From NCBI GenBank assembly GCA_965116875.1, contig OZ220733.1:4704001-4768000 (forward strand): a stretch of DNA of 64,000 nucleotides, written 5' to 3'. Below the pieces are notes generated by a model, which was given only the letters and a program-made list of their open reading frames with translations, did no database searches and had not been told where the DNA came from. A program made the translations under genes and the position numbers. Positions 2,687 through 54,157 of this stretch are shown here, in pieces; position 1 is the first letter of the stretch, and every line of letters starts with the position of its first letter. Source of the DNA: Candidatus Latescibacterota bacterium. Lineage in GTDB: Bacteria; Latescibacterota; UBA2968; GCA-2709665.

Positions 2687-3633
2687 TGCTTCACCTCCAT
2701 GTGATGGACCAGCTGCTGTCCCAGAATGTCACGGGCACGCTGCCCGTCCTTGTGAATTTGCGTAATCAGCGCGTCGGGGTTGGGAAACCGGCGTTCGTCG
2801 CGCAGACGATCCACCAGTTCCAGCGAAATCCGCCGCCCGTAAAGATCGCCGCTGAAATCCAGCAAATGGGCTTCAATCAACCTGCTCCTGCCGTTAAACG
2901 TGGGTCGTAGCCCGAGGTTTACAACCGCAGCATACGGTTCCGGCACAAACGCTTTGGCAACGTACACCCCGTTGGGCGGCAATAGTTTCATGGCATCGTC
3001 GGGCACGATATTCGCGGTCGGATACCCCAGCGCCCGCCCCCGGCCGTCTCCGTGCGCCACACGACCTGAAACAGGATATCCGCCTCCAAGCATCTCACGT
3101 GCTTCGTCGATTCCGCCTCTTCGAATCACTTCCCGAATCCGGCTGCTGCTTACCGGGCCCTCTCCAGCCATCGTGGGCGGCACGACAGAGACGTCGAAAC
3201 CGAACCGATGGCCAAGGGTACGCATGGTGTCGGGATCGCCGCTGCGACCCTTGCCGAATCCGTGATCGTAACCCAGAACCACGACGTTCGCGCCCAGGTA
3301 TTTCACAAGATAGGTCGACACAAATGCATCGGGACCCATCATTTGAACCTGTCTGGTAAACGGGATCACCGCCAGCACGTCGATTCCGGCATCTTCAAGC
3401 CGCTGACGCTTTTCGTCCATGGACGTAAGGACGACCGGCGGGTCGTCGGGATGGATCACGGCCCGCGGATGTGGATCGAACGTGACGGCGACGGCGCTTC
3501 CCGACCGCGCCCGTGCCATGGCAACGACGGATTCTAATACAGCACGATGCCCCTGGTGGACACCGTCGAACGTGCCGACCGTAACCACCGGGTTTTCCAA
3601 TTTGAGCGTCTGTTCCAAAGTCCGTGTCTGCAT
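2677..3633 (-). CDS. ribF: Bifunctional riboflavin kinase/FAD synthetase
   Basis: [31 protein letters not shown]; start moved to ATG 3633 to avoid overlap with truB. Confidence 0.97.
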
Positions 3634-3638
3634 CCGGA

Positions 3639-4532
3639 TCAACTTTCTGGCTGACGCAGCACCCGCACAGGCTTCAGCATCCGGTCGTCGGCCCGCCAGC
3701 GTCCGATGCCGAGCAACACCCCCTTGGGATAGAGCGCCCTGACAAGACGGCCTGACTCGAGAGCAGTTCCTTCCTCGATATTTGCCACAGCAGTTCCGTG
3801 AACAAAACAACCAGCCTGATCGGCGTCCAGGTTGAGACGCGGCATATCGCGCAACAACCGGTTGGGATCCATCAGAAACGGCTGCAACTCCTCCTTCGAT
3901 CCAATGGATTCGAGACGGTTGAGCGCGAGGCACTCGTCAATGCAAACCGGACCGGCGCCCGTGCGCCTGAGCCCGGCCAGATACGCGCCACAACCCAGCT
4001 TCCGGCCGAGGTCATCGGCCAGCGTGCGGATATAGGTACCTTTTGAACAGGAGACCGTCAGGTGTAGATCGGGAGGCCTGAATTCTTTGATATCGATTCC
4101 GTAAATCCGCACGCGGGACGGTCGTCGGGCGACTTCCGTGCCCTCCCGTGCCAACTGGTACAACCGTCTGCCATCCATCTTTCGAGCCGAGAACATCGGC
4201 GGAATCTGTTCGACTTCGCCCAAAAAGGAAGCCACCGCGGCACGGACGTCCGCCGATCGGTCGGGTACGCTGCCGGATCGCGCGACAACTTCGCCTTCGG
4301 CGTCGAGCGTGCTTGTCCGGACCCCGAGTCGGATATGGGCGGCGTACGTCTTGTCGTGGTCCGCGAGATAGGAGCTGAGCCGGGTCGCCCGGCCCAGACA
4401 CAGCACGAGGACGCCGGTCGCGAGCGGATCCAGGGTGCCCGTATGTCCTACTTTCCGAATATTCAGCCGTCGTCGAACGCGGTCGATCACGTCGTGCGAC
4501 GTTATTCCGGGGGGCTTGTCGATCGGCAGCAC
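3639..4532 (-). CDS. truB: tRNA pseudouridine(55) synthase
   Basis: KVGHTGTLDPLATGVL and CSKGTYIRTL; exact start uncertain. Confidence 0.97.
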   Translation of the reverse strand: MLPIDKPPGITSHDVIDRVRRRLNIRKVGHTGTLDPLATGVLVLCLGRATRLSSYLADHDKTYAAHIRLGVRTSTLDAEGEVVARSGSVPDRSADVRAAVASFLGEVEQIPPMFSARKMDGRRLYQLAREGTEVARRPSRVRIYGIDIKEFRPPDLHLTVSCSKGTYIRTLADDLGRKLGCGAYLAGLRRTGAGPVCIDECLALNRLESIGSKEELQPFLMDPNRLLRDMPRLNLDADQAGCFVHGTAVANIEEGTALESGRLVRALYPKGVLLGIGRWRADDRMLKPVRVLRQPES

Positions 4533-4560
4533 GCCTGTGACGTTGATTCTGCCCTCCAGT

Positions 4561-4899
4561 CTACGGCTTCAGGTCGTCGAGCAGCCTGTCGATCCTGCTG
4601 GCCTGTTCCAGAGATTCGTCCAGCCTGAATTCCAATTCCGGCACGTTTCTCAGCCGGATGCGTCCGCCCAGTTCCCTGCGGAGGAATGGAAGCGACCGCT
4701 GGAGCGTCTTGAGGCTCGTGTCCTGACTCTGACTGTCACCCATCACACTGACGTGTACCCGCGCGAATTTCAGGTCTCGCGACACCTGCACACCAGTGAC
4801 GGTAACGTATCCAAGACGAGGATCTTTCAGGTGCCGGTGAATCAGGTCACTGAGTTCAAGCTGTATCTGCCGTCCGACACTCTCTGCACGCCACATCAC
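4561..4899 (-). CDS. rbfA: Ribosome-binding factor A
   Basis: LKDPRLG.VTVT.V.VS.DL..A.V and LR.VPEL.F..D pattern; canonical position. Confidence 0.97.
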   Translation of the reverse strand: MMWRAESVGRQIQLELSDLIHRHLKDPRLGYVTVTGVQVSRDLKFARVHVSVMGDSQSQDTSLKTLQRSLPFLRRELGGRIRLRNVPELEFRLDESLEQASRIDRLLDDLKP

Positions 4900-5183
4900 A
4901 TCAGTTCCAGAGAATAGTCAACGAGCTCCACACGATGGTCCCGTTGCACATGGTCTACGACTTTGGATAGCACGCGATTGACGTAACGCGATTCGTTCGC
5001 CACCATCGCCACGCCAACCTCAGCCTTCTGCCACAGTTCGTTTTGACCGACCTCAGAAACGGATACGTTGTATTTCGCCCGGATCCGTTGCCGAAGACTC
5101 TCCAGAATACGGCGTTTACCCTTTAACGATCCGCTTTCGGGCAGATATAACACCAGACGACACAGGCCGATGGTCATGGACAA
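4896..5183 (-). CDS. DUF503 (YlxP-like) protein
   Basis: SLKGKRRIL...KYNVSVSEV; typical location between infB and rbfA. Confidence 0.9.
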   Translation of the reverse strand: MSMTIGLCRLVLYLPESGSLKGKRRILESLRQRIRAKYNVSVSEVGQNELWQKAEVGVAMVANESRYVNRVLSKVVDHVQRDHRVELVDYSLELM

Positions 5184-5200
5184 GGTTTCAATGCGGCATT

Positions 5201-7657
5201 TTAGAGCGTGCGCGCGGTTTCAACTTGTTCATATGCCTCGATAACATCGCCGAGCTTGGTATCATTGAAATTCTCCAGGCCGATGCCGCATTCAAATCCG
5301 GACTGGACTTCCCTCACGTCGTCCTTGAACCGTCGCAGGGACCCGATCCGGCCCTCGTAGACCACAACACTGTCTCGCAGCACACGCACCATGGCGCTGC
5401 GTGTCATTCGTCCGTTGGAAATGTAACAGCCGGCGATGATGCCAACCCGAGGAACCTGGAACGTCTCCCGGACTTCCGCCGATCCCACGATCTGTTCATC
5501 GATATCGGGCGTGAGCAATCCGGCAAGCGCGGCCTTGATGTCTTCAACCGCCTCATAAATCACCCGGTAGGCGCGGACGTCGACTCGCTCCTGGGCAACC
5601 ACTTCTCGCGCACGGACATCCGGCCGCACATTGAATCCGATAATGATCGCGTCCGATGCGGAAGCGAGCAGAACGTCGGACTCCGACACCGCACCCACCC
5701 CCCGGTGGATCACGTTGATGCGGACTTCGTCGCTGGGGATCTGCATCAGGGAGTCGTGAAGCGCCTCTACGGAACCGTCGACGTCTCCCTTGAGTATCAG
5801 GCGCAACTCCTGGACCTGACCGGCCTTGATCTGATCGTGGATGTCAACCAGGCTGACCCTGCGTATCCGGTGGGCTTCCCGCTCCCGGCGCAGTTGCTGC
5901 CTCTTCTGGCTGATTTCCCTGGCGGTACGTTCGTTTTCCACGGAGTAGAACGAGTCTCCAGCCTGGGGCAGTCCGGACAGGCCAAGCACCTGGACCGGCA
6001 CCGAGGGGCCTGCTTCCGAAACCCGATGCCCTCGCTCGTCCAGAAGCGCCCGCGCCCTGCCGCTGAAGAGTCCGGTGACGAAAGTATCGCCAACCCTCAG
6101 CGTACCTTCCTGCACGAGTACCGTCGCCACGTTCCCGCGGCCGCGGTCCAGGCGGGCCTCGACAATGGCGCCCTTGGCGCGTTTCAGCGAATTGGCCTTC
6201 AACTCCAGCAGATCGGTTTCCAATGCCAGCAACTCGAGCAGATCGTTGATGTTCTCGCCGGTCTTTGCGGAGATCTCACAGGATTGAACCTTGCCCCCGT
6301 ATTCCTCGAGAACCACATTGTGTTCCGTCAGTTGCCGCTTGATTCGATCCACGTCAGCGCCCGGAAGGTCTATCTTGTTGATGGCCAGTACCATTGGAAC
6401 GCCCGCGGCGCGCGCATGGTCGATCGCTTCCACCGTCTGCGGCATGACATTGTCGTCGGCAGCCACGATCAGGACGACGACGTCCGTCACCTGGGCTCCC
6501 CTTGCGCGCATTGCGGTAAACGCCTCGTGACCGGGGGTATCGAGGAAAGTCACCATGCGGCCGTTGTCCAGCTCCACGTGATATGCGCCAATGTGCTGGG
6601 TAATGCCCCCCGCCTCGCCCGCAACCACGTTGGTGTTGCGAACATAATCCAACAGCGACGTCTTGCCGTGGTCTACATGACCCATTATGGTGACCACAGG
6701 CGGACGCGGCGCGAGATCGTCTTCCACGTCTTCGTCTTCATGGTCGAGCACGTCTTCGGCATACTCCTGGAGTTCTTCAACGTCAATTCCGAACTCGTCG
6801 GCAACCAGGGTAATGGTGTCCATATCCAGTCGCTGGTTGATGGTGACCATCAGGCCCAGGGTGAGACACTGCTTTATGACATCGGTAAGCGGAATGTCCA
6901 TGAGCGTGGACAATTCGCCTACCGTTGTAAACTCGTTCACCTTGATGACACGTTCCACGCCCTCTTCGTCCTCGACGTCCGCGTCGTCTCTGCGACGACG
7001 TCGTCGCGAACGGGCCGTCCCGGTTTCCATCTCGGCCATCGTCCGGCGCACGCTGGCTTCGATTTCCGTCTGGTCCGGCGCGGGTCTGCCGCGCCTGCGG
7101 CGGCGACGGCGGCCTTCGCTTTTTTCGGGGGCGGGCTTTTCCTGCGGCCGTGCCGGCTTGGTCTCACTGCGGGTGTCCGCCGCTCCAATGACTTCTACCT
7201 TTGGTTCTCTCCTCGCGGCGTCCCGCCTGCGCCGGCGCGTTGCCTGGTCGTCGCGAATTTCGCGAATCTCGACAGCCTTCCGGACCGGCTCCGCCGGCTT
7301 CGGGGTTTCGGCTGCTTTGGATTCCGTCTTTTTCGCGCTCCCGGCTTTGGCCCTTGCGGGGGCTTTCCGGACTTCCTTTTTTGTATCCTGACGCTGCCTT
7401 CTCTGTGCGGTCTTGCGCTTGATTTCCTGACGGGAGGCGTTACGCTCCTCCTCAAACTTTCCCTGGATGCTATCGAACATCTCCCTGGTGCATACGGCCA
7501 TGTGGTTCTTGACGTCGAACCCCAGTCCCCTGACCACTTCGACCATCGCGACACTCGAGAGATTGAACTCCCGTGCAACTTCGTAGATGCGGCGCTTTTT
7601 GCCATCGGTGTCGTCGGGTGTCGCCGTGACCGTCGCCGCGGGCGCATTTCTGTTCAT
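5201..7657 (-). CDS. infB: Translation initiation factor IF-2
   Basis: [34 protein letters not shown]. Confidence 0.99.
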
Positions 7658-9264
7658 TCGCCGACTCCCCTCCCCTCATCTTCCGGTGGTCCGCCGACCT
7701 GATTGTCTTCAGATGCCGCGGGCTGTACTACCGCGCCGTCTTCCGAAAGCTCGATTTCTTCGTCCGCCGCGGGCTCATTCCCGTCCTCGTCTGCGGCAGC
7801 AACGGCTTCGGCAGTCGCCGCCGCTTCCTCTTCCGCGATACGCGCTGCTTCCTCTTCCGCGATACGCGCTGCTTCCTCCTCCGCGATACGCGCTGCTTCC
7901 TCCTCCGCAAGACGCGCCGCTTCCTCCTCCGCAAGACGCGCCGCTTCCTCCTCCGCCAGACGCGCTGCTTCCTCGGCCCGCTGCTTTTCAAGTTCCTCGC
8001 GGTAGGCCTGAACCTTTACGTTCACGATTTCTTCCGCGGCACTCTGGATTTTTTCTCCGGTGGACTCCCCGACTCCGGGCACTTCGAGCAATCTGACCAG
8101 CGATACATCCACAAGATCGTTGGCGGACAATATTCCGGCGGCCTCGAGACGTTCCAGCATCACCTTCCCCACCCCGGCGACTTCCGACAACGGAACAAAT
8201 GTCGCCTCCTTCTCCAATTGCATTTCCTGGAACCGGGTCTCGGTGATGATGTCGACCTTCCAGCCCGTAAGTTGCGCGGCCAGACGGGCGTTCTGTCCCG
8301 ACTTGCCAATGGCGAGCGACAACTGATCATCGTCGACGATCGCCGTCATCGTCGTTTTGTTTCGATCGACAACCACACGCTTGACCGTGGCGGGACTCAG
8401 CGAACGCGAAAGGAAGATGGCTTCATCGTCGCTCCAGGGAACAATGTCGATCCGCTCGTTGCTCAACTCCCGGACAACCGCCTGGACGCGGGAGCCCTTC
8501 ATCCCCACGCATGCGCCAACCGGATCGATCCTGGCGTCGTTCGAGTACACCGCGATTTTCGCCCTTTCGCCCGGCTCACGAGCGACAGCCTTGATTTCAA
8601 TGACGCCCTCATAGATTTCAGGGACTTCGAACTGAAAAAGCCTGACCACAAATTGCGGATGGGTCCGCGACAGCACCACCTGAGGTCCCTTGGAGGTGCG
8701 GAGGACGTTCACAAGATAGGCTCGGATCGGGTCGCCCTGACGGTAACGCTCCTTGCGAATCTGCTCCTTGAGCGGGATGACCGCCTCCGTGCGCCCCAGG
8801 TTGATGAGAATATCGCCGTGGCTGATCTGCTGGACGGTTCCGCTGATGATTTCGCCGATCCGGGTCTGGTAGTCCTCGTAGATCTTCTCGCGTTCGGCCT
8901 CCCGTACCCGCTGGATCAGGATCTGTTTGGTGGACTGGATGGCATTCCGGCCGAAATCGGCGAACCGGAGCATCTCCCGGATCTCAGTGTTGACCTTGAC
9001 GCCCGGCTGAATCTCCCGGGCAGCCGTAAGACCGATCTGCAAGGCAGGGTCCTCAACCTCATCGTCCTTGACGACGGATTTGGTGGCGAAGACCTCGATA
9101 TTGCCGGAGCTGGCGTCGATATTGACCTCGACGTTGTCCGAGGTGCCGAACCGCCTCTTCGTTGCGGAAAGCAGTCCGATTTCAAGGGTTTCGATAACCA
9201 GCGTCTTGTCGACGTTCTTTTCCTGAGCAATCTGGCCCAGCGCCTCCAGGACTTCGTAATTCAA
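7654..9264 (-). CDS. nusA: Transcription termination/antitermination factor NusA with long acidic tail
   Basis: AREPGERAKIAV, DPVGACVGMKGSRV, LAIGKSGQNARLA; HhH-like region then EEEAAR(L/I)A repeats. Confidence 0.99.
   Translation of the reverse strand: MNYEVLEALGQIAQEKNVDKTLVIETLEIGLLSATKRRFGTSDNVEVNIDASSGNIEVFATKSVVKDDEVEDPALQIGLTAAREIQPGVKVNTEIREMLRFADFGRNAIQSTKQILIQRVREAEREKIYEDYQTRIGEIISGTVQQISHGDILINLGRTEAVIPLKEQIRKERYRQGDPIRAYLVNVLRTSKGPQVVLSRTHPQFVVRLFQFEVPEIYEGVIEIKAVAREPGERAKIAVYSNDARIDPVGACVGMKGSRVQAVVRELSNERIDIVPWSDDEAIFLSRSLSPATVKRVVVDRNKTTMTAIVDDDQLSLAIGKSGQNARLAAQLTGWKVDIITETRFQEMQLEKEATFVPLSEVAGVGKVMLERLEAAGILSANDLVDVSLVRLLEVPGVGESTGEKIQSAAEEIVNVKVQAYREELEKQRAEEAARLAEEEAARLAEEEAARLAEEEAARIAEEEAARIAEEEAARIAEEEAAATAEAVAAADEDGNEPAADEEIELSEDGAVVQPAASEDNQVGGPPEDEGRGVGE
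7817..7976. repeat. 24-bp coding tandem repeat (about 6.5 units of AEEEAAR[L/I]) in nusA
   Basis: Repeated cgcgc(t/c)gcttcctc(t/c)tccgc units read directly in the sequence. Confidence 0.95.
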
Positions 9265-14031: not shown

Positions 14032-14931
14032 TTACGTCGCGAGCGTTTCGACGAAAAAGCTCACGAAGCGCCCGGAATCCACATCCACACAAACCTCCGC
14101 GTTCGCCTCTACGTCGTCGGACCGGACCGGGACCGTCGCGCCGTTGAGCCTGTCGGAGCACGTTTCAACGTGGATGGCGCCGGACCGGGTTTCACAGAAC
14201 GTGGGATCGAACACCATCGCTACGGCGAGAGGATCGTGCAGTATGGGATGTTCACGCCCGGAATCCTCCCGCCAGAGCTGAATAAGATCGAGGCAGAGCC
14301 GGTTGATGGGCCTGCCCGCGTCACCGATCGCCTGTACCTGCGCGGTATCCAGGCGGCACTTTTCGGTCACGTCGAGGCCCACCATGGTGATCGGAGCCCC
14401 GGCGCCGAACACCACGTGCGCCGCTTCGGGGTCGCAGAGGATGTTCCACTCCGCCCTCATCCGCCCCACGCATCCGCCCATCAGACAGATCGTCATCTTC
14501 CGCGCCAGACGCGGCTCCACCGTCAACGCGGCCGCGATATTCGTCAGTGGGCCGATTGGAACAAGCGTTATGTCTCCGGCGCCGCCCATTACCGTTTCGA
14601 CGATGAAATCGACCGCCCGCTCCTCGGCAGGCTGCGACGGTCCCGGGTATCGCCGGATGGCCGCCATCTGCCGCGGTCGATGCTTCTCAATGGCGGCCTG
14701 CCCCTTCGATGCGGTATCGAAAAGCGGCTTGCCGAGACCGGCGTAGACGGGAACGTCGCCCCTTCCCAGCGCATCCAGGACGCAACACGCCAGCTCAGCT
14801 CGTCGCGCCGTATCGCGGAACACCGTCGTCACACCCACAAGCTCGATCTCCCCGCAAAGCAGCGCGAAAGCCAGCGCCAACGCGTCATCCACGTCGTCGC
14901 CGATATCCGTGTCGAGGATGATTTTCTTCAT
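14032..14931 (-). CDS. Nucleoside hydrolase (IU-NH family)
   Basis: DTDIGDDVDD, IGPLTNIA, AEWNI..DPEAA, LHDPLA. Confidence 0.93.
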   Translation of the reverse strand: MKKIILDTDIGDDVDDALALAFALLCGEIELVGVTTVFRDTARRAELACCVLDALGRGDVPVYAGLGKPLFDTASKGQAAIEKHRPRQMAAIRRYPGPSQPAEERAVDFIVETVMGGAGDITLVPIGPLTNIAAALTVEPRLARKMTICLMGGCVGRMRAEWNILCDPEAAHVVFGAGAPITMVGLDVTEKCRLDTAQVQAIGDAGRPINRLCLDLIQLWREDSGREHPILHDPLAVAMVFDPTFCETRSGAIHVETCSDRLNGATVPVRSDDVEANAEVCVDVDSGRFVSFFVETLAT

Positions 14932-14989
14932 TGGTTTCCCTTTTCCCGTACCTGTACACATATCACACCTGTTCAAAAACGGATCAATT

Positions 14990-15019
14990 AACTACAAATG
15001 TCGCGAATATACGCGAAAT
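14990..15019 (+). repeat. Solo AACTAC-type repeat unit (GxxExxY-flanking family)
   Basis: AACTACAAATGTCGCGAATATACGCGAAAT; close to the unit AACTACAAATGACGCGAA upstream of GxxExxY. Confidence 0.6.
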
Positions 15020-15060
15020 ATATGGCTGGAGAAATCGTCCACATACGCGAACCGACGGCC

Positions 15061-15170
15061 AACCTGGTTTTCGTGATCCGGATCAATCCCGTACAAAACC
15101 GCCAATTGAAGCCACTTTTCGAACCTCATCTCCGAGAATTCCACGGTTCCTGGACAACAATGTCCGCACA
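15061..15170 (-). pseudogene. Fragment of an unknown small gene, copy A
   Basis: HCCPGTVEFSEMRFEKWLQLAVLY; homologous to 16497-16602 with synonymous changes in this frame. Confidence 0.45.
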
Positions 15171-15177
15171 TGTATTC

Positions 15178-15202
15178 GTAGGGGCGACCCTTGTGGTCGC
15201 CT
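15178..15202 (+). repeat. GTAG-class REP palindrome
   Basis: GTAG-GGGCGACC-cttgt-GGTCGCCT. Confidence 0.75.
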
Positions 15203-15247
15203 TGGGGTCGGCAGACTTCGAATGTCAATGCAGACCTGCCGAAACGT

Positions 15248-15271
15248 GGTCATTGAGCTTGTCGAAATGCC
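15248..15271 (+). repeat. TGAGCTTGTCGAA micro-hairpin repeat
   Basis: GGTCATTGAGCTTGTCGAAATGCC; same core as 16323-16345 and 25631-25650. Confidence 0.65.
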
Positions 15272-15286
15272 CGTGTATCGTACACC

Positions 15287-15952
15287 CTACCCCACTTCAC
15301 CTGCTTCTGATTCAGAATTAGACCATTCCTGGATCAAGACGGATGGATTATCCGCATCCACGGGCCGCGCACCTTGTTCAAACAAGTGCGAATTATCCTC
15401 TGAAGCCAGCGCGAACACCGTTTTCCCAGCCCCAGTCGCCTCCCGGCAGAGCGCCTCGATCTTCCCCCCTGTTTCCCCGTGGGCGATCAGGATGACGTCC
15501 GCGAGCCCGGCGACACGTGCATTTCGTTCGGCTGCGGTCGCTGCGGTGGGACGACGGACCCGGTCGTCGAAAAAGGACAGAAACATGAGACGGCCATCAT
15601 TGAGCGGTTGTTTCCATACCTCTAGAATCCGCATCTTGCAGAGCCCGCGGGCCGGACAGACGACGACCTGTGCCGATCCTCGCAACAACAGGCTCAGGAA
15701 TTCCCGTTCCATTGGCGACTGAAACCCACCCACAAACGTGACGCCAAAGTCCCGCACAGCCCTCGCAAGATCGAACGTCTTCAGGATCACGTCGCCGGGA
15801 CATCGGACCGAACAGAAGAAACCGATCAACCGGCCCTCAAGGATCGCCGGATCCCCCAATACTGCAACCGGCTCCTCTCCCCGGGCGCCGATGCATCGCC
15901 TCAACACCGCCGGCAGTTCCGGCGTGCATCTGTCGAAACGCACGATATTCAA
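15287..15952 (-). CDS. Short DprA/Smf-like (SLOG fold) protein
   Basis: LGDPAIL..RLIGFFCSVRCPG, VGGFQSPMERE, AERNARVAGLAD. Confidence 0.75.
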   Translation of the reverse strand: MNIVRFDRCTPELPAVLRRCIGARGEEPVAVLGDPAILEGRLIGFFCSVRCPGDVILKTFDLARAVRDFGVTFVGGFQSPMEREFLSLLLRGSAQVVVCPARGLCKMRILEVWKQPLNDGRLMFLSFFDDRVRRPTAATAAERNARVAGLADVILIAHGETGGKIEALCREATGAGKTVFALASEDNSHLFEQGARPVDADNPSVLIQEWSNSESEAGEVG

Positions 15953-16086
15953 TAGATTATTTCCGGGCTGATTTTCGGGCGAAAGCTCAGGTTTGGTTCA
16001 ATTCGAAACAAAACAACCGTCAATTTACCGCAAAAAGCACAAAAGGCACAGAAGGTTACATTGCGTGAACGAGGGGAAAGGGAATC

Positions 16087-16130
16087 AAACTACGAATAAC
16101 GCGAATCGACGCGAAAAAGGCTGAAAGGCA
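16087..16130 (+). repeat. Solo AAACTACGAA repeat unit (GxxExxY-flanking family)
   Basis: AAACTACGAATAACGCGAATCGACGCGAAAAAGGCTGAAAGGCA; near-consensus of the 17.7-kb array. Confidence 0.8.
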
Positions 16131-16166
16131 GAAAAAAGCATTGGTCAGTGGTCAGCGAGAAAACGG

Positions 16167-16468
16167 GAGATTCTTCGACTCCGCTCAGAATGACACGTTG
16201 ACCGATAGGCGGGCACGTTGCTTCCCGCTGTCATCCAGAGGAGGCCTGCGCGCGACGCCGGCGAAACATACCCGTTACACGTACTTCCCACTGTCATTTC
16301 CGGAAGACTTGCCCTGAGCCTGCGGTCCCTGAGCTTGTCGAAGAGTCGAAAGATGCGCAGGCCGACGAAGGATCTACTGCAGCATCAGATCAACGGCGAG
16401 CGTCTCCCTATCAGTCTGAACAAAAATGCAGCACAAGCGTTCCTGCTTCGACTTCGCTCAGAATGACA
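16167..16468. repeat. Cluster of TGTCAT-headed hairpin repeats in both orientations, including a nested copy
   Basis: 16167-16195 and 16446-16468 (minus: TGTCATTCTGAGCG(G/A)AGTCGAAG); starts at 16229 and 16292 on the plus strand. Confidence 0.7.
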
Positions 16469-16496
16469 TGGGTTGCAACAGATGCGAACCCATGAC

Positions 16497-16602
16497 AACC
16501 TGTTCATTGTTATCCGAGTCAGACCTGTACAAGATCGCCAATTGAAGGCACTTTTCAAACCTCATCTCCAGGAATCCCACGGTTCCTGGACAGCAATGTG
16601 AC
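16497..16602 (-). pseudogene. Fragment of an unknown small gene, copy B
   Basis: HCCPGTVGFLEMRFEKCLQLAILY; homologous to 15061-15170. Confidence 0.45.
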
Positions 16603-16651
16603 CTCATAAATATTTCTCTAATTCGCGCTGGACGGGTTCAGTTCTTCTGTT

Positions 16652-16741
16652 TCATGCACGTGTCGAGCCTGGCATTACATCCGCAACTTCGCCTAGATCA
16701 ACGCGTGCCGTTTCAAGCCACACTCTCACTTGATTTCTCAT
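16652..16741 (-). pseudogene. Truncated HEPN-domain toxin (N-terminal remnant)
   Basis: MRNQVRVWLETARVDL then stop after 29 aa; overlaps the end of the MNT gene as in MNT-HEPN pairs. Confidence 0.6.
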
Positions 16742-17071
16742 ATAGCGTCTTTCCTGAGCGTTCAATCCGATTGAGAAACGAAGCGCCCTGCAGCTTTAGA
16801 AGCTCGTACTCGGCCCTGGTGTACACAACAAGGTCTATCGGAAGCCTCCTGTTTATCTCTCGGATACGATTCCGTACTGTAATTCTTGCTGCCATCCTTT
16901 CGTGATAGTTGCGCGGGACCGCCTGCGAGTCCAGCATGACCAGAAGATCGATATCGCTCGCCGCACCTTGCACCCCCGATGCGGCCGATCCGAACAGGAC
17001 GATCCTGTAAGGATCGACGTTCAAGAGAAGCGATACGATACCATCCAGATTGCTTGCTGTTTTGCATCCAT
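16713..17071 (-). pseudogene. Minimal nucleotidyltransferase (MNT antitoxin), apparent frameshift near the start
   Basis: IVLFGSAA...SDIDLLV...PIDLVVYT; GGAG-led ATG at 17071 is out of frame; TTG 17024 could still give a shortened protein. Confidence 0.7.
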
Positions 17072-17125
17072 ATTGTCAACTCCAACGGTATAGTCATCAG
17101 GCGACGGCTCACGAAAGCCTACATC

Positions 17126-17365
17126 TCACGCGAACTCATAGAGCGGCACTGTCGTTTCCTGCTGGCGGTCCTCCTCCAGCAGGCGTTCAATCCTCCGAAC
17201 CGTCTCGAGATTCAGCAGCACATCGCCGCAGGAGGAACAGACCTCGACCGGAACATGGTCGATGACGATCAGCTGGCCGTCATGTCGTACGGTGTGCGTC
17301 ACCTCCTTCGCTTCGTATTGTCCCTGGCATCCGTCGAAGCTGCAATTCACGTCGATCGTCTCCAT
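17126..17365 (-). CDS. YgiT/MqsA-type zinc-finger protein
   Basis: CSFDGC...VIDHVPVEVCSSCGD, 79 aa. Confidence 0.85.
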   Translation of the reverse strand: METIDVNCSFDGCQGQYEAKEVTHTVRHDGQLIVIDHVPVEVCSSCGDVLLNLETVRRIERLLEEDRQQETTVPLYEFA

Positions 17366-17659
17366 TCATACGAAAAGCGCGTCCTTTTCGATACGTAGAA
17401 TTAACGGAGTGCGGATGTTCTTACTCAGTCGGCGGATATCCACCCTGCACCCGAGAGCTTGTTCCAGATAGATGTGAAGTCCGGCCAGATCGTCAAACTT
17501 TGGTTTCCTGAGTTCTACAACGAAATCGACGTCGCTGTCTTCCCGCTGCGTACCCGAAGCGTATGACCCGTACAGGCCGATCCGGCGGACGCCAAATTGA
17601 CGATCCAGTTCCGCTTTATTCTGGGCAAGAAACCTGAGGATGTCCTGTCTCGATTTCAT
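17366..17659 (-). CDS. Minimal nucleotidyltransferase (MNT antitoxin)
   Basis: GVRRIGLYGSYASG...DSDVDFVVE...LG..VD. Confidence 0.9.
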   Translation of the reverse strand: MKSRQDILRFLAQNKAELDRQFGVRRIGLYGSYASGTQREDSDVDFVVELRKPKFDDLAGLHIYLEQALGCRVDIRRLSKNIRTPLILRIEKDALFV

Positions 17660-17702
17660 TGTCGCTTCTCAAATTACGGGTGCGTGAAGTTCGATGAAAG
17701 CA

Positions 17703-17916
17703 AAACTACGAATAACACGAATTGACGCGAATAAGGCGGAAAAGCACGAAACTACGAATATACGAAAAGGCACGAAAAGGCAGAGGCATTAAACTACGAA
17801 TAACGCGAACAAGGCGGAAAGTCACAAACTTCGAAAAAGCGCGAAAAAGGCTGAAAGGCAAAACTACGAACAGCGCGAATAGACGGGAAAAAGGCTGAGA
17901 ATCATCAAAATACGAA
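17703..17916 (+). repeat. Degenerate tandem array, six AAA(C/A)T(A/T)CGAA-headed units (five of 35-46 bp plus a truncated sixth)
   Basis: Units read directly; internal CGAA/GGAA recurrence every 8-10 bp. Confidence 0.85.
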
Positions 17917-17935
17917 AAAATGGGAATGATGAGGC

Positions 17936-18321
17936 CTATTGTTCGTTTACGAAACGTTCGTATTCCAGCCCTGGATGATGGCCGAAGTTGACGAGCAGAC
18001 CGAGTTTCACGCCGGTTGATTTCAGGTAGTTGATGATCTGGGCGCGATGTTCATCGTTCAGTTGTTTCACTGCCTTGATTTCCACGACGATTTTATCGGA
18101 ACAGAGAAAATTCGGCTGGTAGAACTGATTCAACGCCAGTCTCTTATAATGAAGTCTTGAATCTTTTTTCTCCTGTTACGGGATCGCGGAAGAAGCGAAT
18201 TCTATTGCAAGACACTCCTTGTAAACCGCTTCGAGAAAGCCGGCTCCTTTCTCGTTATGCGCTTCAAAACAGCCCCTATAATTCGATAGCTTTCCTCTCT
18301 GTAGACGATTGTGCTGGTCAT
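17936..18321 (-). pseudogene. GxxExxY protein (PD-(D/E)xK-like nuclease), frameshift plus internal TAA
   Basis: MTSTIVYREESYRIIGA / FEAHNEKGAGFLEAVYKECLAIEF...IP* ...KIVVEIKAV...HRAQIINYLK..G.KLGLLVNFG. Confidence 0.88.
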
Positions 18322-18325
18322 TTCT

Positions 18326-18388
18326 TTCGCTTCTGTTCGCGTCATTTGTAGTTCATCAGGTTTGCGTCTATTCGTGACTTTCGTAGTT
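18326..18388 (-). repeat. Two AACTAC units inverted relative to the 17.7-kb array, abutting the GxxExxY ATG
   Basis: Minus strand AACTACGAAAGTCACGAATAGACGCAAA...AACTACAAATGACGCGAACAGAAGCGAA. Confidence 0.8.
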
Positions 18389-18473
18389 AATCAGGAACAT
18401 GGAGCGAATAGTTCGAGGATCTTGCGGTCTGTCCGAAGCGGTCCTGAGCACGTCGGTGTCCAGAACGTGGGAA

Positions 18474-18746
18474 TTAGCGGCCATCATTGCTATAGATCTC
18501 ATCCCTATTCCACGACGTCGATCTTCCCGTCCTGACTGTCACCAGTTCCAGCTTTGGGATATCCGTATCTGTCGTACTTGTCCGGACCAACCCATCGAGA
18601 CCGGATTCATCATTCGACACGGGACGAACAACGAAGCCGCCATGCCCTTTCTCAATCTTAAGATGGTCTCCGGGACCTACCCGCAGCATGTTCAGCACCC
18701 GCTTTGGCAGGGTAACCTGGCCTTCTGAGCTCATCTTGACAATCAT
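18474..18746 (-). CDS. AbrB/MazE-family antitoxin-like protein with no toxin downstream
   Basis: MIVKMSSEGQVTLPKRV...L.VGPGDHL; C-terminal WNRDEIY as in VapB-type antitoxins. Confidence 0.8.
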   Translation of the reverse strand: MIVKMSSEGQVTLPKRVLNMLRVGPGDHLKIEKGHGGFVVRPVSNDESGLDGLVRTSTTDTDIPKLELVTVRTGRSTSWNRDEIYSNDGR

Positions 18747-49026: not shown

Positions 49027-51330
49027 TCACCCCTTCCCGTTGCCTCCGCCACCATTTGCGATGAGGGTTTTCAGAACACGGCCCGGGGACATGGGCAGGT
49101 CGCGCAAACGCACGCCCACGGCATCGTAGATCGCATTCGCCACGGCGGCCGGTGGAGGAACAATGGGTACTTCTCCCACGCCCCGCACACCGTACGGGTG
49201 GCCCGGATTGGGCACTTCCACGATTACCGTCTCGATCATCGGCAGATCCAGACAGGTTGGCATCCGGTAGTCCAGAAGGCTGGCGTTTACGAGGTCGCCC
49301 GCTTCGTTGTAGAAGTATTCTTCGTTCAATGCCCATCCGATGCCCTGTGCCACGCCGCCCTGCATCTGCCCTTCCACGTACGAGGGGTGTATGGCTTTAC
49401 CTGCATCCTGGACGATGGTGACCCTGAGAATGTCCACCTTTCCGGTCTCGGGATCGACTTCCACGTCCACCACCATGACGGCGTACGCAGGCCCCGCCGC
49501 TTTGCCCGCCACCGCCGCGCGCCCGACCACGGGACCGCCCGTGGCGCCCAGCTTGCCTGCCAGTTCGGTAAACGTGATCGACTTCTCGGGGGCCGACCTC
49601 GACTTGAACACCCCGGTTTCGAAACCCACGTCGTCCTCCGAAATCTCCCACAATCTGGCCGCCCTGGCCTCCATCTGACGCTTTGCGTCCATGGCAGCCT
49701 CGTATCCCGCCCAACCCGTGGCAAACGTCACCCGGCTCCCGCCGGTGCCGTCTGTCTGTCCGATGGCATCGGTATCCACCACCATAGGCTTCACCTGCGC
49801 GGCCGGGATGCCCAGCACCTCTGCAACCTGCATCGCGATGGAGGTACGTGTACCACCGATATCGGGAGAGCCTTCGACCAGGCTGACCGTTCCGTCGGCA
49901 TTGACGCTGACCATAACCGTGGACGTGCCTCCCCCGTTGAACCAGAACCCCGATGCCACACCCCGACCCCGGTTGGGTCCGTCGAGTCCGGATTGATAAT
50001 GGTCTGACGCCATCGCCGCTTTCACGCATTCGTCGTGGCCGATCCGGGGAAACACCGGGCCGTCGGCCCGCCGGCTGCCCTCCCTGGCGGAGTTCTTCAG
50101 GCGAAACTCGAGCGGGTCGGTTTGAAGGTTTTCGCAGATCTCGTCGATCACCGTTTCAGCAGCGAATGCGCCGTTGGTTGCGCCCGGCGCGCGGTATGCG
50201 GAGGTCTGTGGCTTGTTCACGACCACGTCGTACCCGTCGATGACAACATTGGGAATGTCGTACGGAGAAAAGATACAGCCGGCGCCGGCGCCGACGGGTG
50301 ATCCCGGATAGGCCCCGGCTTCGTAGGCGAGATACGCCTGGGCGGCGACCAGCCTGCCGTCGTTCGTTGCGCCCATCTTCACCTTCATGAAGGAGCCCGG
50401 AGTCGGACCCGTCGCCTTGAGGACTTCCGTCCGGCTCATCACCATCTTTACGGGCTTGCCCGTCATCCTGGACATCACAGCGGCCGTCGGTTCCTCGTAG
50501 ACGCGGAACTTGCCGCCGAACCCGCCGCCGATCTCCGCCGGCACCACCCGGACCGTTGAGGCCGGCACTCCCAATACGACCGCGACCTGGTCTCGTACCT
50601 CGAACGGCCCCTGGGTACTCGTCCAGATGGTGATCTGGTCGTCCAGATTCCAATACGCCGTCGCGTTATGGGGCTCTATGTAACCCTGGTGTACCGTCTG
50701 CGTGCTGAACTCCCGTTCAACGACCACGTCGGCCTCGGCAAATCCCCGGTCGATGTCGCCAAGGGAATGCTGGAAATGACTGGCGACGTTTCCCGGTTTG
50801 TCCGTCGTCTGACCCAGTGACTTCATCCTCATGTTTTCGTGCAGGATTGGCGCGCCTTCTTCCATTGCGGGACGGACGTCGAGTACGGGCTCCAGAACTT
50901 CGTACTCCACGCGTATCAGATCGAGGGCTTCTTCCGCGATATGGGCCGACGTCGCCGCGACAGCAGCGACCGCATGCCCCTCGTAGAGCACTTTATCTGA
51001 AGCCAGTACGTTTTTGATGAGATCGGGCAGGTTTACGGACTCCTCCCCGATGGCGGCCACCTTGTCTTCGTAGTGTTGCGCGAGGTCTGCGCCCGTCATC
51101 ACGGCCTTTACGCCCGGAAGGGCTTCGGCAGCACTCGTATCAACGGATAGAATACGGGCGTGCGCATGCGGACTGCGGAGGGTTTTTCCGATCAACACGC
51201 CCGACGTATGGGTATCCGCTCCGTACTTCGCGCGGCCCGTCACCTTATCCGTACCATCGTGGCGAATCGGCCGGGTTCCCACCACATTGTAGCTCTCGAT
51301 GCCAAGATAGTCTTCGGTCTTCGTGGCCAT
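49027..51330 (-). CDS. Xanthine dehydrogenase-family molybdopterin-binding subunit (copy 2)
   Basis: KVTGRAKY, LRSPHAHA, GGGFGGK, AYRAPG, VEGQMQGG, GVRGVGE. Confidence 0.95.
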   Translation of the reverse strand: MATKTEDYLGIESYNVVGTRPIRHDGTDKVTGRAKYGADTHTSGVLIGKTLRSPHAHARILSVDTSAAEALPGVKAVMTGADLAQHYEDKVAAIGEESVNLPDLIKNVLASDKVLYEGHAVAAVAATSAHIAEEALDLIRVEYEVLEPVLDVRPAMEEGAPILHENMRMKSLGQTTDKPGNVASHFQHSLGDIDRGFAEADVVVEREFSTQTVHQGYIEPHNATAYWNLDDQITIWTSTQGPFEVRDQVAVVLGVPASTVRVVPAEIGGGFGGKFRVYEEPTAAVMSRMTGKPVKMVMSRTEVLKATGPTPGSFMKVKMGATNDGRLVAAQAYLAYEAGAYPGSPVGAGAGCIFSPYDIPNVVIDGYDVVVNKPQTSAYRAPGATNGAFAAETVIDEICENLQTDPLEFRLKNSAREGSRRADGPVFPRIGHDECVKAAMASDHYQSGLDGPNRGRGVASGFWFNGGGTSTVMVSVNADGTVSLVEGSPDIGGTRTSIAMQVAEVLGIPAAQVKPMVVDTDAIGQTDGTGGSRVTFATGWAGYEAAMDAKRQMEARAARLWEISEDDVGFETGVFKSRSAPEKSITFTELAGKLGATGGPVVGRAAVAGKAAGPAYAVMVVDVEVDPETGKVDILRVTIVQDAGKAIHPSYVEGQMQGGVAQGIGWALNEEYFYNEAGDLVNASLLDYRMPTCLDLPMIETVIVEVPNPGHPYGVRGVGEVPIVPPPAAVANAIYDAVGVRLRDLPMSPGRVLKTLIANGGGGNGKG

Positions 51331-51395: not shown

Positions 51396-53675
51396 TCACG
51401 GTCCGTTTTTGCTCCACAGCGCTTTGAGGACATTGCCGGGAGACATCGGCAACACGTTCATACGGATACCCGCGGCGCGGTAGATGGCATTGGCGAGTGC
51501 GGCCGGCGGCGGCACGATGGGCGCCTCTCCCACACCGCGCACTCCGTATGGATGACCGGGGTTTGGAACTTCCACGATAATGGTTTCGATCATCGGCAGG
51601 TCCAGGCAGGTCGGCATCCGGTAATCCAGCAGGCTGGCGTTGGTCAATTCACCCTTGTCGTTATACCAATACTCCTCGTTCAGTCCCCAACCGATCCCCT
51701 GCGCCGCGCCCCCCTGCATCTGACCCTCTACGTATGCGGGATGGATGGCCTTGCCCGCGTCCTGCACCATGGTGACCCTGAGAATATCCACCTTACCTGT
51801 ATCGGGATCGGTTTCGACGTCGGCGATCATCAGGGAAAACGCGCCTCCCACTCCCTGCGGGTCGACGGTCGCACGCCCGACGACAGGCCCGCCAGTCTCA
51901 TTGAGTTTTCCAGCCAGTTCCTTGAATGTCAAGGATTTCGACGGATCTGACCTGGATTTGAACGTGCCGTCCTCGAAAGCGACGTCGTCAGGCGAAATCT
52001 CCCAGTATTTCGCGGCGCGCTCGACCATCTGCGCAATGATGTCCTGTGCTGCGTTGTATGCCGCCCAGCCCGTGGCGAACGTCACCCGGCTTCCGCCCGT
52101 CACGTCGGTCTCCCCAACGCCGTCGGTATCCGCCACGACCGGATTCACGTCTTCCGCCGGGATGCCCAACGGCTCGGCGAGCTGCATCGCCACCGAGGTC
52201 CGCGTACCGCCGATATCGGTGGACCCTTCGACCAGGCTTACCGTGCCGTCCGTATTTACGGACGCACACGCGCTGGATTTGAGCCCCACATTGAACCAGA
52301 AGCCGGAAGCCACGCCGCGACCCCGGTTTTTCCCCTCCAGGGGCGCATTGTAGTGTTCGCTCGTCATCGCCGCCCTTAACACTTCCTCGTGGCCGATACG
52401 GGGAAACGTGGGGCCGTCCGCCCTGCGCGTACCTTCTCTTGCCGTATTCTTCATGCGGAACTCGAGTGGATCCTCGCCAAGCCTCTCGCAGATCTCGTCG
52501 ATGATGGTCTCCGACGCAAAGGCCGCATTGGTGGCGCCAGGTGCTCTATAGGCCATCGTCTGGGGCTTGTTTACAACGACGTTGTACCCGTCGATGACCA
52601 CGTTCGGGATCTCATAAGGAGCGAAAATGCACATGGCGCCGGGTTCGGCCCATGCTCCGGCGAACCCACCCGATTCGTAGGCCAGGTAAGCCTGTGCGGC
52701 CACGAGTTTGCCTTCGCTGGTGGCGCCCATCCTGACGCGGACGTAGGATCCGGGAGTGGGTCCCGTGGCCTTCAGCACCTCGTCGCGGCTCATCACCATT
52801 TTCACCGGATGGCCGGACTTTTTCGAAAGAACAGCGGCAACCGGCTCCAGGTACACCCTGATCTTGCCGCCGAATCCCCCGCCGATTTCGGTTGGGATCA
52901 CCCGGATATTCACGGGCGATATCTGTAGCAGCCCCGCCAGCTGCTCGCGCACCGTAAACGATCCCTGGGTGCTGCACCAGACCGTAAGACGCCCATCGGG
53001 GTTCCAAAGCGCCGTGGCATTCTGCGGTTCGATGTATCCCTGGTGTACCGTGTCGGTAAAAAACTCCCGTTCAATCACCACGTCGGCCTCTTCGAAGCCC
53101 GACTCGACGTCCCCAAGCTTATGCTGAAAGTGCGTGGCGATATTGCTTGGCTTTCCGGTATCTTCGCCCAGCGACTCGGTGGTAAGGCTTTCATGCAGGA
53201 GCGGGGATTCCGGTTTCATTGCCTCCCGCACGTCGAGCAGCGGCTCCAGAATCTCGTATTCCACGTCGATCAGCCCAAGCGCCTCCTCCGCAATATGCGC
53301 GCTTGTCGCGGCCACGGCCGCCACCGCGTGGCCGTCGTAGACCACCTTGCCGTCGGCCAGTACGTTGGCGCGCAGATCCACCATATCGGCCGCGCCTTCT
53401 CCCAGGTCCTCCACCTTCTTCTCGGGTACGGGAATGTCGGCGACGGTGGCAACGGCCTTCACGCCGTCGAGCGCTTCGGCCCGATTCGTGCGAATGGACA
53501 CAATGCGCGCGTGGGCATGGGGGCTTCGCAACACCTTCCCGTAGACAAGGCCGGACATGTGAACATCGGCTCCGTATATGGCCCGTCCCGTGACCTTGTC
53601 CACGCCATCGTGCCTGATCGGCCGGCTGCCCAGCACCTTGTATTCCTGTATTCCGAGATAGTCCTCAGTTGGCAT
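51396..53675 (-). CDS. Xanthine dehydrogenase-family molybdopterin-binding subunit (copy 1)
   Basis: Same motifs; ATG 53675 overlaps the small-subunit stop and aligns with the N-terminus of copy 2. Confidence 0.95.
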   Translation of the reverse strand: MPTEDYLGIQEYKVLGSRPIRHDGVDKVTGRAIYGADVHMSGLVYGKVLRSPHAHARIVSIRTNRAEALDGVKAVATVADIPVPEKKVEDLGEGAADMVDLRANVLADGKVVYDGHAVAAVAATSAHIAEEALGLIDVEYEILEPLLDVREAMKPESPLLHESLTTESLGEDTGKPSNIATHFQHKLGDVESGFEEADVVIEREFFTDTVHQGYIEPQNATALWNPDGRLTVWCSTQGSFTVREQLAGLLQISPVNIRVIPTEIGGGFGGKIRVYLEPVAAVLSKKSGHPVKMVMSRDEVLKATGPTPGSYVRVRMGATSEGKLVAAQAYLAYESGGFAGAWAEPGAMCIFAPYEIPNVVIDGYNVVVNKPQTMAYRAPGATNAAFASETIIDEICERLGEDPLEFRMKNTAREGTRRADGPTFPRIGHEEVLRAAMTSEHYNAPLEGKNRGRGVASGFWFNVGLKSSACASVNTDGTVSLVEGSTDIGGTRTSVAMQLAEPLGIPAEDVNPVVADTDGVGETDVTGGSRVTFATGWAAYNAAQDIIAQMVERAAKYWEISPDDVAFEDGTFKSRSDPSKSLTFKELAGKLNETGGPVVGRATVDPQGVGGAFSLMIADVETDPDTGKVDILRVTMVQDAGKAIHPAYVEGQMQGGAAQGIGWGLNEEYWYNDKGELTNASLLDYRMPTCLDLPMIETIIVEVPNPGHPYGVRGVGEAPIVPPPAALANAIYRAAGIRMNVLPMSPGNVLKALWSKNGP

Positions 53676-54157
53676 CAGGCCGTCTCCTTCATCGTTCCGG
53701 CCGTGTCCATCACTGCTCTGACGATCTTGTCGTATCCGGTACACCGGCAGAGATTCCCGGCCAGCCACAGGCGAATCCGCTGTTCGTCCGGTTCCGGTTC
53801 CCGATCCAGCAACGCTTTCGCCGCCACGATAAACCCGGGCGTGCATACGCCGCACTGAAGCGCCGCGTGTTCCAGGAACTTCTGCTGCAACGGATGCAGC
53901 CCCTCCGCGGTCGCCACGCCTTCAATGGTTGTGATTTCGCACCCTTGTGCCTCCACTCCCAGCGCAAGACAGGAATTGATGACGCGTCCGTTGATTATGA
54001 CGCTGCAGGCGCCGCAGTTGCCGTTGCCGCAACCCTCTTTGGCCCCGGTGAGATCCAGGATGTCGCGAAGCACCTCCAGCAACGTATCCCTGGGTTCGCA
54101 CAGAAACTCCGTTTCTTCTCCGTTGATCGTCGTTGTGACGTGAACTTTGCCGGCCAT
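53675..54157 (-). CDS. (2Fe-2S)-binding small subunit, CoxS/XdhC-like
   Basis: GCGNGNCGAC...SC, QCGVC, NLCRCTGY. Confidence 0.96.
   Translation of the reverse strand: MAGKVHVTTTINGEETEFLCEPRDTLLEVLRDILDLTGAKEGCGNGNCGACSVIINGRVINSCLALGVEAQGCEITTIEGVATAEGLHPLQQKFLEHAALQCGVCTPGFIVAAKALLDREPEPDEQRIRLWLAGNLCRCTGYDKIVRAVMDTAGTMKETA

Follow-up and report, generated by a model that had tools for sequence, protein, structure and literature searches.

Inverted iteron arms around GxxExxY nuclease genes: a candidate nuclease-repeat cassette, with a decayed copy in Candidatus Latescibacterota

The stretch of DNA analysed here (the window) comprises 64,000 nucleotides of contig OZ220733.1 from a Candidatus Latescibacterota bacterium, and carries at 17936..18345, on the minus strand, a pseudogene of the GxxExxY family (TIGR04256 / PF13366) of PD-(D/E)XK nucleases, on either side of which lie short repeats, termed arms below, that point at the gene. 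The assignment was made with Pfam and TIGR profiles and with intact orthologues. The C-terminal open reading frame (ORF) of the gene matches PF13366 (E 9.2e-19; 68.4 bits against a cut-off of 22), and the read-through translation, P0001, matches TIGR04256 (E 1e-34; 119.4 bits against a curated cut-off of 35). Apart from L090, loci with L numbers stem from one scan of species-representative genomes, in which at least 597 loci were confirmed and the best 80 kept; two of these 80, L001 and L002, contain intact orthologues of the window gene. Relative to these, the window gene has a single-base deletion, and with it a frameshift, near 18272/18273 and a TAA in frame at 18176-18178, while the near-invariant Asp of the PD motif is replaced by Asn at 18110-18112. 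Residues E31, D71, E81 and K83, which make up the E...PD...ExK motif, are invariant across 47 aligned family sequences, and the window copy has neither an intact frame nor the full catalytic set. The frameshift, the in-frame stop and the Asn together identify the window copy as a pseudogene member of the GxxExxY family, which is what an earlier annotation made from the DNA letters alone (the sequence-only reading) had correctly called it. The first ATG is at 18345, homology favouring the ATG at 18321 as the likelier start, and the TAG stop codon is at 17936-17938. The G+C content of the cassette region is 44-45%, as opposed to 59% for the whole window, and no intact GxxExxY paralogue was found within the 64 kb.

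Downstream of the pseudogene, the 3' arm is present as six tandem units (17703..17916, plus strand), each 35-46 bp long, which occupy the spacer between its stop codon and a minimal nucleotidyltransferase (MNT)-type gene with its ATG at 17659, the last unit stopping 20 nt short of the pseudogene stop codon. The units share the motif AAACTACGAA and are purine-rich on the plus strand, and hence antisense to the gene; the sub-repeats within them have a period of 9-10 bp, and the AT skew reaches 0.66 at 17700-17899. On the other side lie two 5' arms, both on the minus strand and sense to the gene. The inner one (18326..18353) has three iterons, overlaps the first ATG and is degenerate in comparison with L001 and L002, such that both the gene and its proximal arm are decayed in the window. 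The outer one (18361..18388) is 82% complementary to the outermost 3' unit (17704-17731), of which it is the inverted partner. The sequence-only reading had described six units ending about 20 bp from the stop codon, two inverted units by the ATG, an inward orientation on both sides, periodic sub-repeats and a purine skew, and all of these particulars were confirmed.

With one mismatch or fewer, AAACTACGAA has 11 matches in the window against 1.79 expected, a number reached in 0 of 100 shuffles; eight of the matches fall within 16087-18389, and the remaining three, at 34401, 35682 and 51067, are chance-like. Strong arm matches within the 64 kb all lie between 14993 and 18388. Two groups of these stand apart from the pseudogene. 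At 14990..15045, on the plus strand and thus in the opposite orientation, is the 5' remnant of a second element, consisting of an arm (from 14993) and about seven codons (MAGEIVH), followed by unrelated repeat DNA. This remnant is missing from the corresponding spacer in L001 and L002; an attempt to define a clean empty site for it was abandoned, the spacer being too rearranged in both. At 16026..16115, also on the plus strand, are two solo arms, one degenerate (16026-16053) and one good (16088-16115), which neither enclose nor adjoin a gene. The earlier annotation had listed solo units at both places, and that at 16088-16115 is truly solo, whereas that at 14990 belongs to the second gene copy. 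The 3' units of the window, L001 and L002 are orthologous and differ in number, and tandem duplication of cassette ends extends through the clade of the window: in L004, a 127-bp unit comprising upstream flank, 5' arm and first codons is repeated 4.9 times at 3364-3981. Multi-unit arrays are confined to that clade (the window and L001-L006) and are not the general trait for which they had been taken, since elsewhere there is one triple-iteron arm per side; the tandem 3' units are a lineage-specific duplication of the cassette end. The window is best read as holding a dead copy of the cassette, duplicated at its 3' end, with two remnants close by.

The generality of the gene-plus-arms arrangement was examined across the scanned loci, whose phyla include Latescibacterota, Gemmatimonadota, Verrucomicrobiota, Kiritimatiellota, Planctomycetota, Acidobacteriota, Pseudomonadota and Calditrichota. 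The best repeat between the 150 nt upstream and the 220 nt downstream of each gene was scored alongside 421 displaced-window controls, with L049 dropped on account of its short flank. An inverted flanking repeat beyond the 99th percentile of the controls was present at 69 of the 79 loci, with a median score of 41 versus 16. The sequence-only reading would have fallen had GxxExxY homologues not been enriched for flanking inverted repeats, and the enrichment was found. Each arm consists of three direct iterons of 9-10 bp, for example AACTACGAA-ACACGCGAA-AGGCGCGAA, with no internal palindrome, and each iteron has eight constrained positions and one free position. A strict regular expression for an arm, requiring three cores of the form [CT][AG]C[GAT][AG]A spaced 8-11 nt, detected 216 arms in 583,810 bases of locus sequence, where about 5 were expected. 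Among the 28 loci with strict arms on both sides, the cassette measures 437-533 bp (median 459.5), the sense arm ends a median of 3.5 nt before the ATG, and the antisense arm starts a median of 5 nt after the stop codon or overlaps the end of the ORF. The intact cassette is thus a unit of about 0.45 kb with one GxxExxY nuclease gene of about 125 amino acids.

The 120 proteins closest to the window gene are 63-88% identical to it, and many of them are annotated with N-terminal extensions (TTKYAKGAK) and C-terminal tails (LSRISRIS), which are spurious and arise from translation of the repeat in sense or antisense. Eight remoter members (30-48% identity), on plasmids and chromids of cultured bacteria, were also inspected. 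Arms of the same plan, with other iterons, flank the genes of Bacteroides finegoldii (CACAGAGGA, three times), Bernardetia (CACAGAGA) and Sphingomonas (CGCGAAG); Gemmatirosa has the same plan with a CGCGGAT pair downstream, the Treponema locus has one unit per side, and no flanking repeats were found at the Persicobacter locus, one of the eight. A profile search at E<=1e-3 returned 20,473 cluster representatives (50% identity), which shows the family to be large. Single genomes may hold sizeable sets of its paralogues.

The two arms of a cassette match one another closely. The core pentamer is identical in both arms at 59 of 61 loci, and where both arms have 9+9 spacing (16 loci) 276 of 288 core positions are identical, whereas the free position of each iteron matches from arm to arm in 6/16 and 4/16 cases, which is the chance level. 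Complementary arms that bracket an ORF exactly, in cassettes situated inside transcription units, might be expected to act in RNA, pairing in the transcript and looping out the ORF, as in ribosomal RNA intervening sequences, with a role in processing, messenger RNA stability or translational control; gene-less arm pairs, described below, would likewise form hairpins. The mismatches between arms speak against this, as 40 are G-U-compatible in the sense strand and 48 in the antisense strand, with 125 transversions, and there is no bias towards G-U pairs. Matched cores, a free position at chance level and the lack of G-U bias indicate that selection acts on each iteron rather than on the pairing of the arms, and an RNA stem as the main constraint on the arms was rejected on these grounds. 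That a protein residue tracks the iteron base (see below) also sits poorly with an RNA-level role, as does the absence of any Rfam family match at the arms: a search of the whole window at gathering thresholds returned a transfer RNA only, a search of 14800-18600 at E<=5 returned nothing meaningful, and 17 loci yielded only a cobalamin riboswitch and a group II intron, both away from the arms. An explanation at the level of RNA is consequently regarded as improbable. Preservation of the same double-stranded sequence, inverted, at both ends indicates instead a ligand that reads DNA and not the transcript. As to the group II intron itself, it lies in L045 (Planctomycetaceae; 5483-5557 and 7152-7371; RF02005 and RF00029), about 1-3 kb downstream of the cassette.

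The relationship between iteron type and encoded protein was then considered. Mapped on the protein tree, iteron type changes 18 times, against 25.2 +/- 1.5 changes in shuffled data, and none of 500 shuffles gave so low a value; the proposal that repeat type tracks protein phylogeny accordingly survived, and at the level of sequence a single residue also covaries with a single base. The residue is the one that follows FEV[YH] (N23 of the family member P0005), and the base is iteron position 9. Of 18 loci with T at position 9, 17 have Asn at this residue; the 45 loci with A there comprise 43 with Lys or Arg and none with Asn (Fisher 1.8e-14 for the association of T with Asn, with no correction for phylogeny). 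When five iteron backgrounds (CACGAA, CACGGA, CGCAGA, CGCGAA and TACGAA) are taken separately, each obeys the rule, and a tree computed with the covarying column removed shows 12 changes in each trait and 13 in the combined state. Outside the discovery set, T is found with Asn in Treponema, Gemmatirosa and the second copy of L075, A with Lys in the second copy of L056, and G with Arg in Sphingomonas. Among the 120 metagenome proteins, those with A-type tails have Lys in 45 cases, Arg in six, Thr in one and Asn in none; an attempt to read iteron type from the protein tails of 150 representatives was set aside, because few carry tails and only five could be classified. P0264 looks like an exception but is ambiguous, given that C may be the last base of an Asn codon. 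There is also a second covarying pair, in which G at iteron position 7 accompanies Thr, as opposed to Ser, at the start of the helix that carries the first residue (9/12 versus 0/51).

Several iteron families occur together in single loci (L020, L033, L036, L056 and L075), and in L056 each of two paralogues has its own iteron type, which favours a cis-encoded factor over one supplied by the host. On the strength of these sequence comparisons, the ligand of the arms is most likely the encoded protein. A confident AlphaFold2 model (predicted local distance difference test score 92.1; predicted template modelling score 0.86) has the fold of a minimal PD-(D/E)XK core and places both covarying residues on helix 8-25. 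The best Foldseek match was 4ic1 (Cas4 SSO0001; E 2.7e-4; template modelling (TM) score 0.51), with the Holliday junction resolvase Hjc (2wcw) at a TM score of about 0.41, and no sequence homologue was found in the PDB at E<=1. A separate observation concerns three pairs of loci, L043/L078, L028/L037 and L058/L063, in which the cassettes adjoin the same neighbour gene in different genera and have different iteron types (for example CGAAT versus CGAAA); within each pair the six iterons have all switched in concert, and the Lys/Asn residue has switched too.

The limits of the cassette as an insert are defined by two empty sites, a comparison suggested together with the sequence-only reading. In B. 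finegoldii the cassette lies between radA and a flavin adenine dinucleotide (FAD) gene, running from 1 nt past the radA stop codon to 5 nt before the next ATG, and in Parabacteroides distasonis radA and the FAD gene are 13 nt apart, which represents the empty site. Likewise, Sphingomonas parapaucimobilis has the arms and gene between fabD and fabG, genes that in S. paeninsulae are separated by 32 nt, again empty. In both filled/empty comparisons the extra DNA coincides with the outer ends of the arms, and arms plus gene therefore constitute one discrete insert. The radA spacer of these Bacteroidales seems to be a recurrent insertion point. In L090 (Phocaeicola massiliensis) that spacer holds, at about 1060-1710, a different, cysteine-rich ORF of about 215 amino acids. 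Flanks were also compared for 31 pairs of genes with at least 78% nucleotide identity: 19 pairs are without flank homology and 12 have it, the flank-unlike pairs including Gemmatimonadota-like and Latescibacterota loci with genes at 86-90% identity.

Derivatives of the cassette were also found. Gene-less convergent arm pairs number 26, in 15 loci, and L038 has at 4389-5337 a tandem array in which a 162-bp unit with a sense/antisense arm pair is repeated 4.8 times or more. Copies with internal deletions between the arms are present in L002, L006 and L017. In the last of these the short and the full copy have duplicated flanks in common, and the two were for that reason not taken as a pair of autonomous element and miniature inverted-repeat transposable element (MITE).

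In the window, the pseudogene and its arms lie in an island, between housekeeping genes, of small toxin-antitoxin and defence-like genes (MazE, PIN, MNT, MqsA-like and PsyrA-like), and entire small genes distinguish this island from those of L001 and L002. Because the small genes form a co-oriented, cassette-like run that varies between relatives and has solo arms at its junctions, the arms could be taken for sites at which a trans-acting recombinase works, of integron/attC type or similar, with GxxExxY merely the commonest cargo. Against this, a Pfam scan of the 57 ORFs of the 64-kb window brought up neither an integrase nor any other recombinase. Furthermore, the gene-sized convergent arm pairs enclose only GxxExxY genes or their remnants (37 a GxxExxY gene, four a second copy or fragment, two short non-coding DNA and none another gene), and iteron type goes with the residue found in the enclosed protein, also where a single locus contains two paralogues. 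The two-arm layout is in addition unlike the single 3' attC of an integron cassette. Identity with an integron cassette was dismissed, given a window without integrase and arms on both sides of the gene, and recombination sites of any such kind are considered very improbable.

Several details of the island are recorded here in their own right. The segment 14032-19962 of the window encodes two MazE-like proteins, a PIN protein, two MNT-type nucleotidyltransferases, an MqsA-like and a PsyrA/DprA-like protein, and the order and number of these genes vary in L001-L006; L002 is without the PIN gene and has an extra HicB-like/toxin pair accompanied by an arm array of its own. The Latescibacterota loci have their MazE genes on the opposite side of the GxxExxY gene. 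A repeat of another type, about 120 nt long and containing CCPGTVEFSEMRFEKWLQLAVLYG on the reverse strand, occurs at 15041-15163 and 16480-16590 of the window and at 5633-5754 of L001 (82% identity), and one copy of it truncates the second GxxExxY remnant. Further short interspersed repeats, namely a GGGGCGACCC...GGTCGCC hairpin and copies resembling GTCATTCTGAGCG..GTCGAAGAATC, are found at 15165-15200, about 16170-16200 and about 16440-16470, so that the spacers of the island form a patchwork of several repeat families. As to membership of GxxExxY in known anti-phage defence systems, a PADLOC search gave only a weak partial match to PDC-M36A (E 3.6e-4 to 3.6e-3). With respect to phage families, there was no PHROG match, and tblastn against 50,697 phage records was blank. 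Elsewhere in the window, a 24-bp tandem repeat of 6.5 copies (94% match) lies at 7819-7974, in frame with the ORF 7703-8005, and two adjacent paralogous genes for molybdopterin-binding, xanthine dehydrogenase-type large subunits (49027-51330 and 51396-53855) are each about 64% identical to one gene of L049.

Taken together, the observations are probably, though by no means securely, explained by a compact cassette of nuclease gene and repeats, a discrete and probably selfish insert whose encoded protein binds the inverted iteron arms on either side of its gene. Under this explanation, the protein would most likely bind its iterons as double-stranded DNA through the N-terminal helix, several subunits per arm could bring the two ends of the cassette together, and the conserved nuclease site would act at or near the arms. 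The outcome would be a selfish nuclease-repeat system, resembling that of repetitive extragenic palindromes (REPs) and their associated tyrosine transposases (RAYTs), that leaves behind gene-less arm pairs and internally deleted copies. We infer that the arms are bound directly and cut, and that the cassette moves or is maintained as a result. A more far-reaching proposal, which is offered tentatively and is in our estimation rather doubtful, is that GxxExxY cassettes are minimal autonomous mobile elements. A nuclease of about 125 amino acids, with no DDE, HUH or recombinase domain, would read the triple-iteron ends by a residue-to-base code (Lys/Arg for purine, Asn for T), synapse them, excise the 0.45-kb unit and insert it into operon spacers without target-site duplication, and seed arm pairs like the REP doublets known as REPINs. 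The central idea of the sequence-only reading, a GxxExxY nuclease paired with the inverted repeats around it, has in large part been borne out and generalised by the present analysis, the multi-unit array being the element that did not prove general. The nuclease may also spread these repeats, as that reading supposed, and a part for the repeats in cassette turnover within the island is conceivable.

A number of observations weigh against a mobile cassette of this kind. No target-site duplication of at least 3 nt was found directly outside the arms in any of 28 loci, and 2-nt direct repeats were present there in two of the 28, about 1.75 being expected; nor was a transposition event or excision product seen in the loci examined. 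Orthologous cassette sites are shared by different genera (L043/L078, L028/L037, L025/L065 and L047/L048), with which long vertical residence fits as well as mobility does, and the flanks common to the two L017 copies could reflect segmental duplication or an assembly artefact. Within the window no arms lie beyond the island, and there is accordingly no sign of genome-wide spread in this organism. The architecture also has its departures: a significant inverted repeat was not seen in 10 of 79 loci, the strict three-core expression is satisfied on both sides in only 28 of 80, the Fusobacteria and Prevotella plasmid loci have direct rather than inverted flanking repeats, and planctomycete-type loci are reversed beside the gene, with an antisense arm upstream, a sense and antisense pair downstream, and gene-less convergent pairs to either side. 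Under strict phylogeny the covariation is weak, because with only three independent pairs on well-supported branches a sign test cannot reach 0.05; the 122-column protein tree leaves 39 of its 77 forks unresolved. Finally, the loci come mostly from metagenome-assembled genomes, which makes taxonomy and some joins uncertain. L064, labelled Nitrospirota and on a 4-kb contig, has a downstream flank and cassette type in common with the verrucomicrobial L050; its bin assignment is therefore doubtful, it appears to be mis-binned, and cross-phylum identities need care.

Some of the same evidence would suit a resident gene with operators, in which the arms serve the protein, or a partner of it, as binding sites for regulating or insulating expression of the gene within host operons, while the nuclease performs some other job such as repair or defence. 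The spacer that the cassette occupies is usually short and lies between genes of like orientation: by a crude ORF caller, the upstream neighbour was co-oriented in 58 of 71 cases, the downstream neighbour in 53 of 68 and both neighbours in 42 of 59, figures only modestly above the usual rate for adjacent bacterial genes. Together with arms that abut the ATG (median 3.5 nt) and the stop codon, orthologous sites conserved across genera and the lack of target-site duplications, this is what operators would predict, and the residue-base covariation would fit an autoregulator equally well. Operators do not, however, account for the two empty sites, at which arms and gene come and go as one unit, nor do gene-less pairs, the 162-bp tandem array of L038 and internally deleted copies have any operator role. 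Moreover, 19 of 31 close gene pairs lie in unrelated flanks, regulation leaves the invariant nuclease site unexplained, and decayed copies such as that in the window argue against a needed host function. A resident gene of this sort is therefore judged unlikely, and a cassette bounded by the probable binding sites of its own nuclease is preferred.

The present work provides PF13366/TIGR04256 with a defined genomic unit, a likely DNA ligand and a testable recognition rule, and the covariation of one residue with one base could seed the study of how a minimal nuclease fold reads DNA. The arms are, in addition, a likely source of assembly breaks and of variation in operon spacers. Should the cassette prove to move by means of the nuclease it encodes, no self-contained mobile element in bacteria would be smaller, and a minimal autonomous element of this type would assign a function to a family that has none and exceeds 20,000 sequence clusters.

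Several known systems resemble the cassette in part. Free-standing homing endonuclease genes are similarly lone, small nuclease genes in conserved, co-oriented spacers, present or absent among relatives as in the two filled/empty comparisons, and PD-(D/E)XK homing enzymes exist; in contrast to the cassette, they lack boundaries of inverted iterons matched to the protein, and no homing-type target site was identified in the empty alleles at the sites compared. Terminal inverted repeat (TIR) transposons and MITEs, Tn7 and Mu likewise have inverted ends composed of several repeated protein-binding sites, and their internally deleted or gene-less derivatives keep those ends. The cassette differs from TIR transposons in that it is without a DDE or serine/tyrosine enzyme, its sole ORF being the PD-(D/E)XK protein of about 125 amino acids, and from DDE-type TIR transposons and insertion sequences in the absence of target-site duplications of at least 3 nt (0/28); it is, to our knowledge, far smaller than any autonomous transposon. 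With minimal PD-(D/E)XK nucleases, namely Cas4 SSO0001, the lambda exonuclease core, Hjc and the tRNA-splicing endonuclease, the protein has the core fold in common at the superfamily level only, and we know of no flanking iterons for any of these. The consulted part of a 2012 survey of the PD-(D/E)XK superfamily gave the function of PDDEXK_3 as unknown and reported multiple transfers (PMC3424549), and in the accessible parts of two other papers GxxExxY is mentioned in passing only (PMC8934634, PMC12085832). A description of the repeats flanking the family was not found in the searchable literature, subscription journals and supplements lying outside the search.

The closest likeness is to REP/RAYT systems and REPINs, a parallel that had been drawn from the sequence alone and that proved apt, given a gene between inverted repeats at 69 of 79 loci and 26 gene-less pairs in 15 loci. 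In both systems a nuclease gene lies between inverted short repeats, which recur as gene-less inverted pairs or clusters; in both, several repeat families coexist in a genome, each tied to its own gene copy, and inheritance is often vertical (REP/RAYT features from the portions available of PMC5581495, PMC8266576, PMC3479197 and PMC3733652). The enzyme is different, however, being an HUH/Y1 transposase there and here a PD-(D/E)XK fold of about 125 amino acids, in which Pfam finds only PDDEXK_3. The repeat differs also, since a REP is a palindromic hairpin with a GTAG/CGTC tag (PMC3733652, available part), whereas each arm here has three direct iterons of 9-10 bp, and here the arms abut the ORF such that gene and arms form a 0.45-kb unit. 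We read this as a family of cassettes, undescribed in the literature searched, that is analogous to REP/RAYT with a different enzyme and a different repeat. If its movement does depend on its own nuclease, it would provide a second, mechanistically different counterpart to REP/RAYT.

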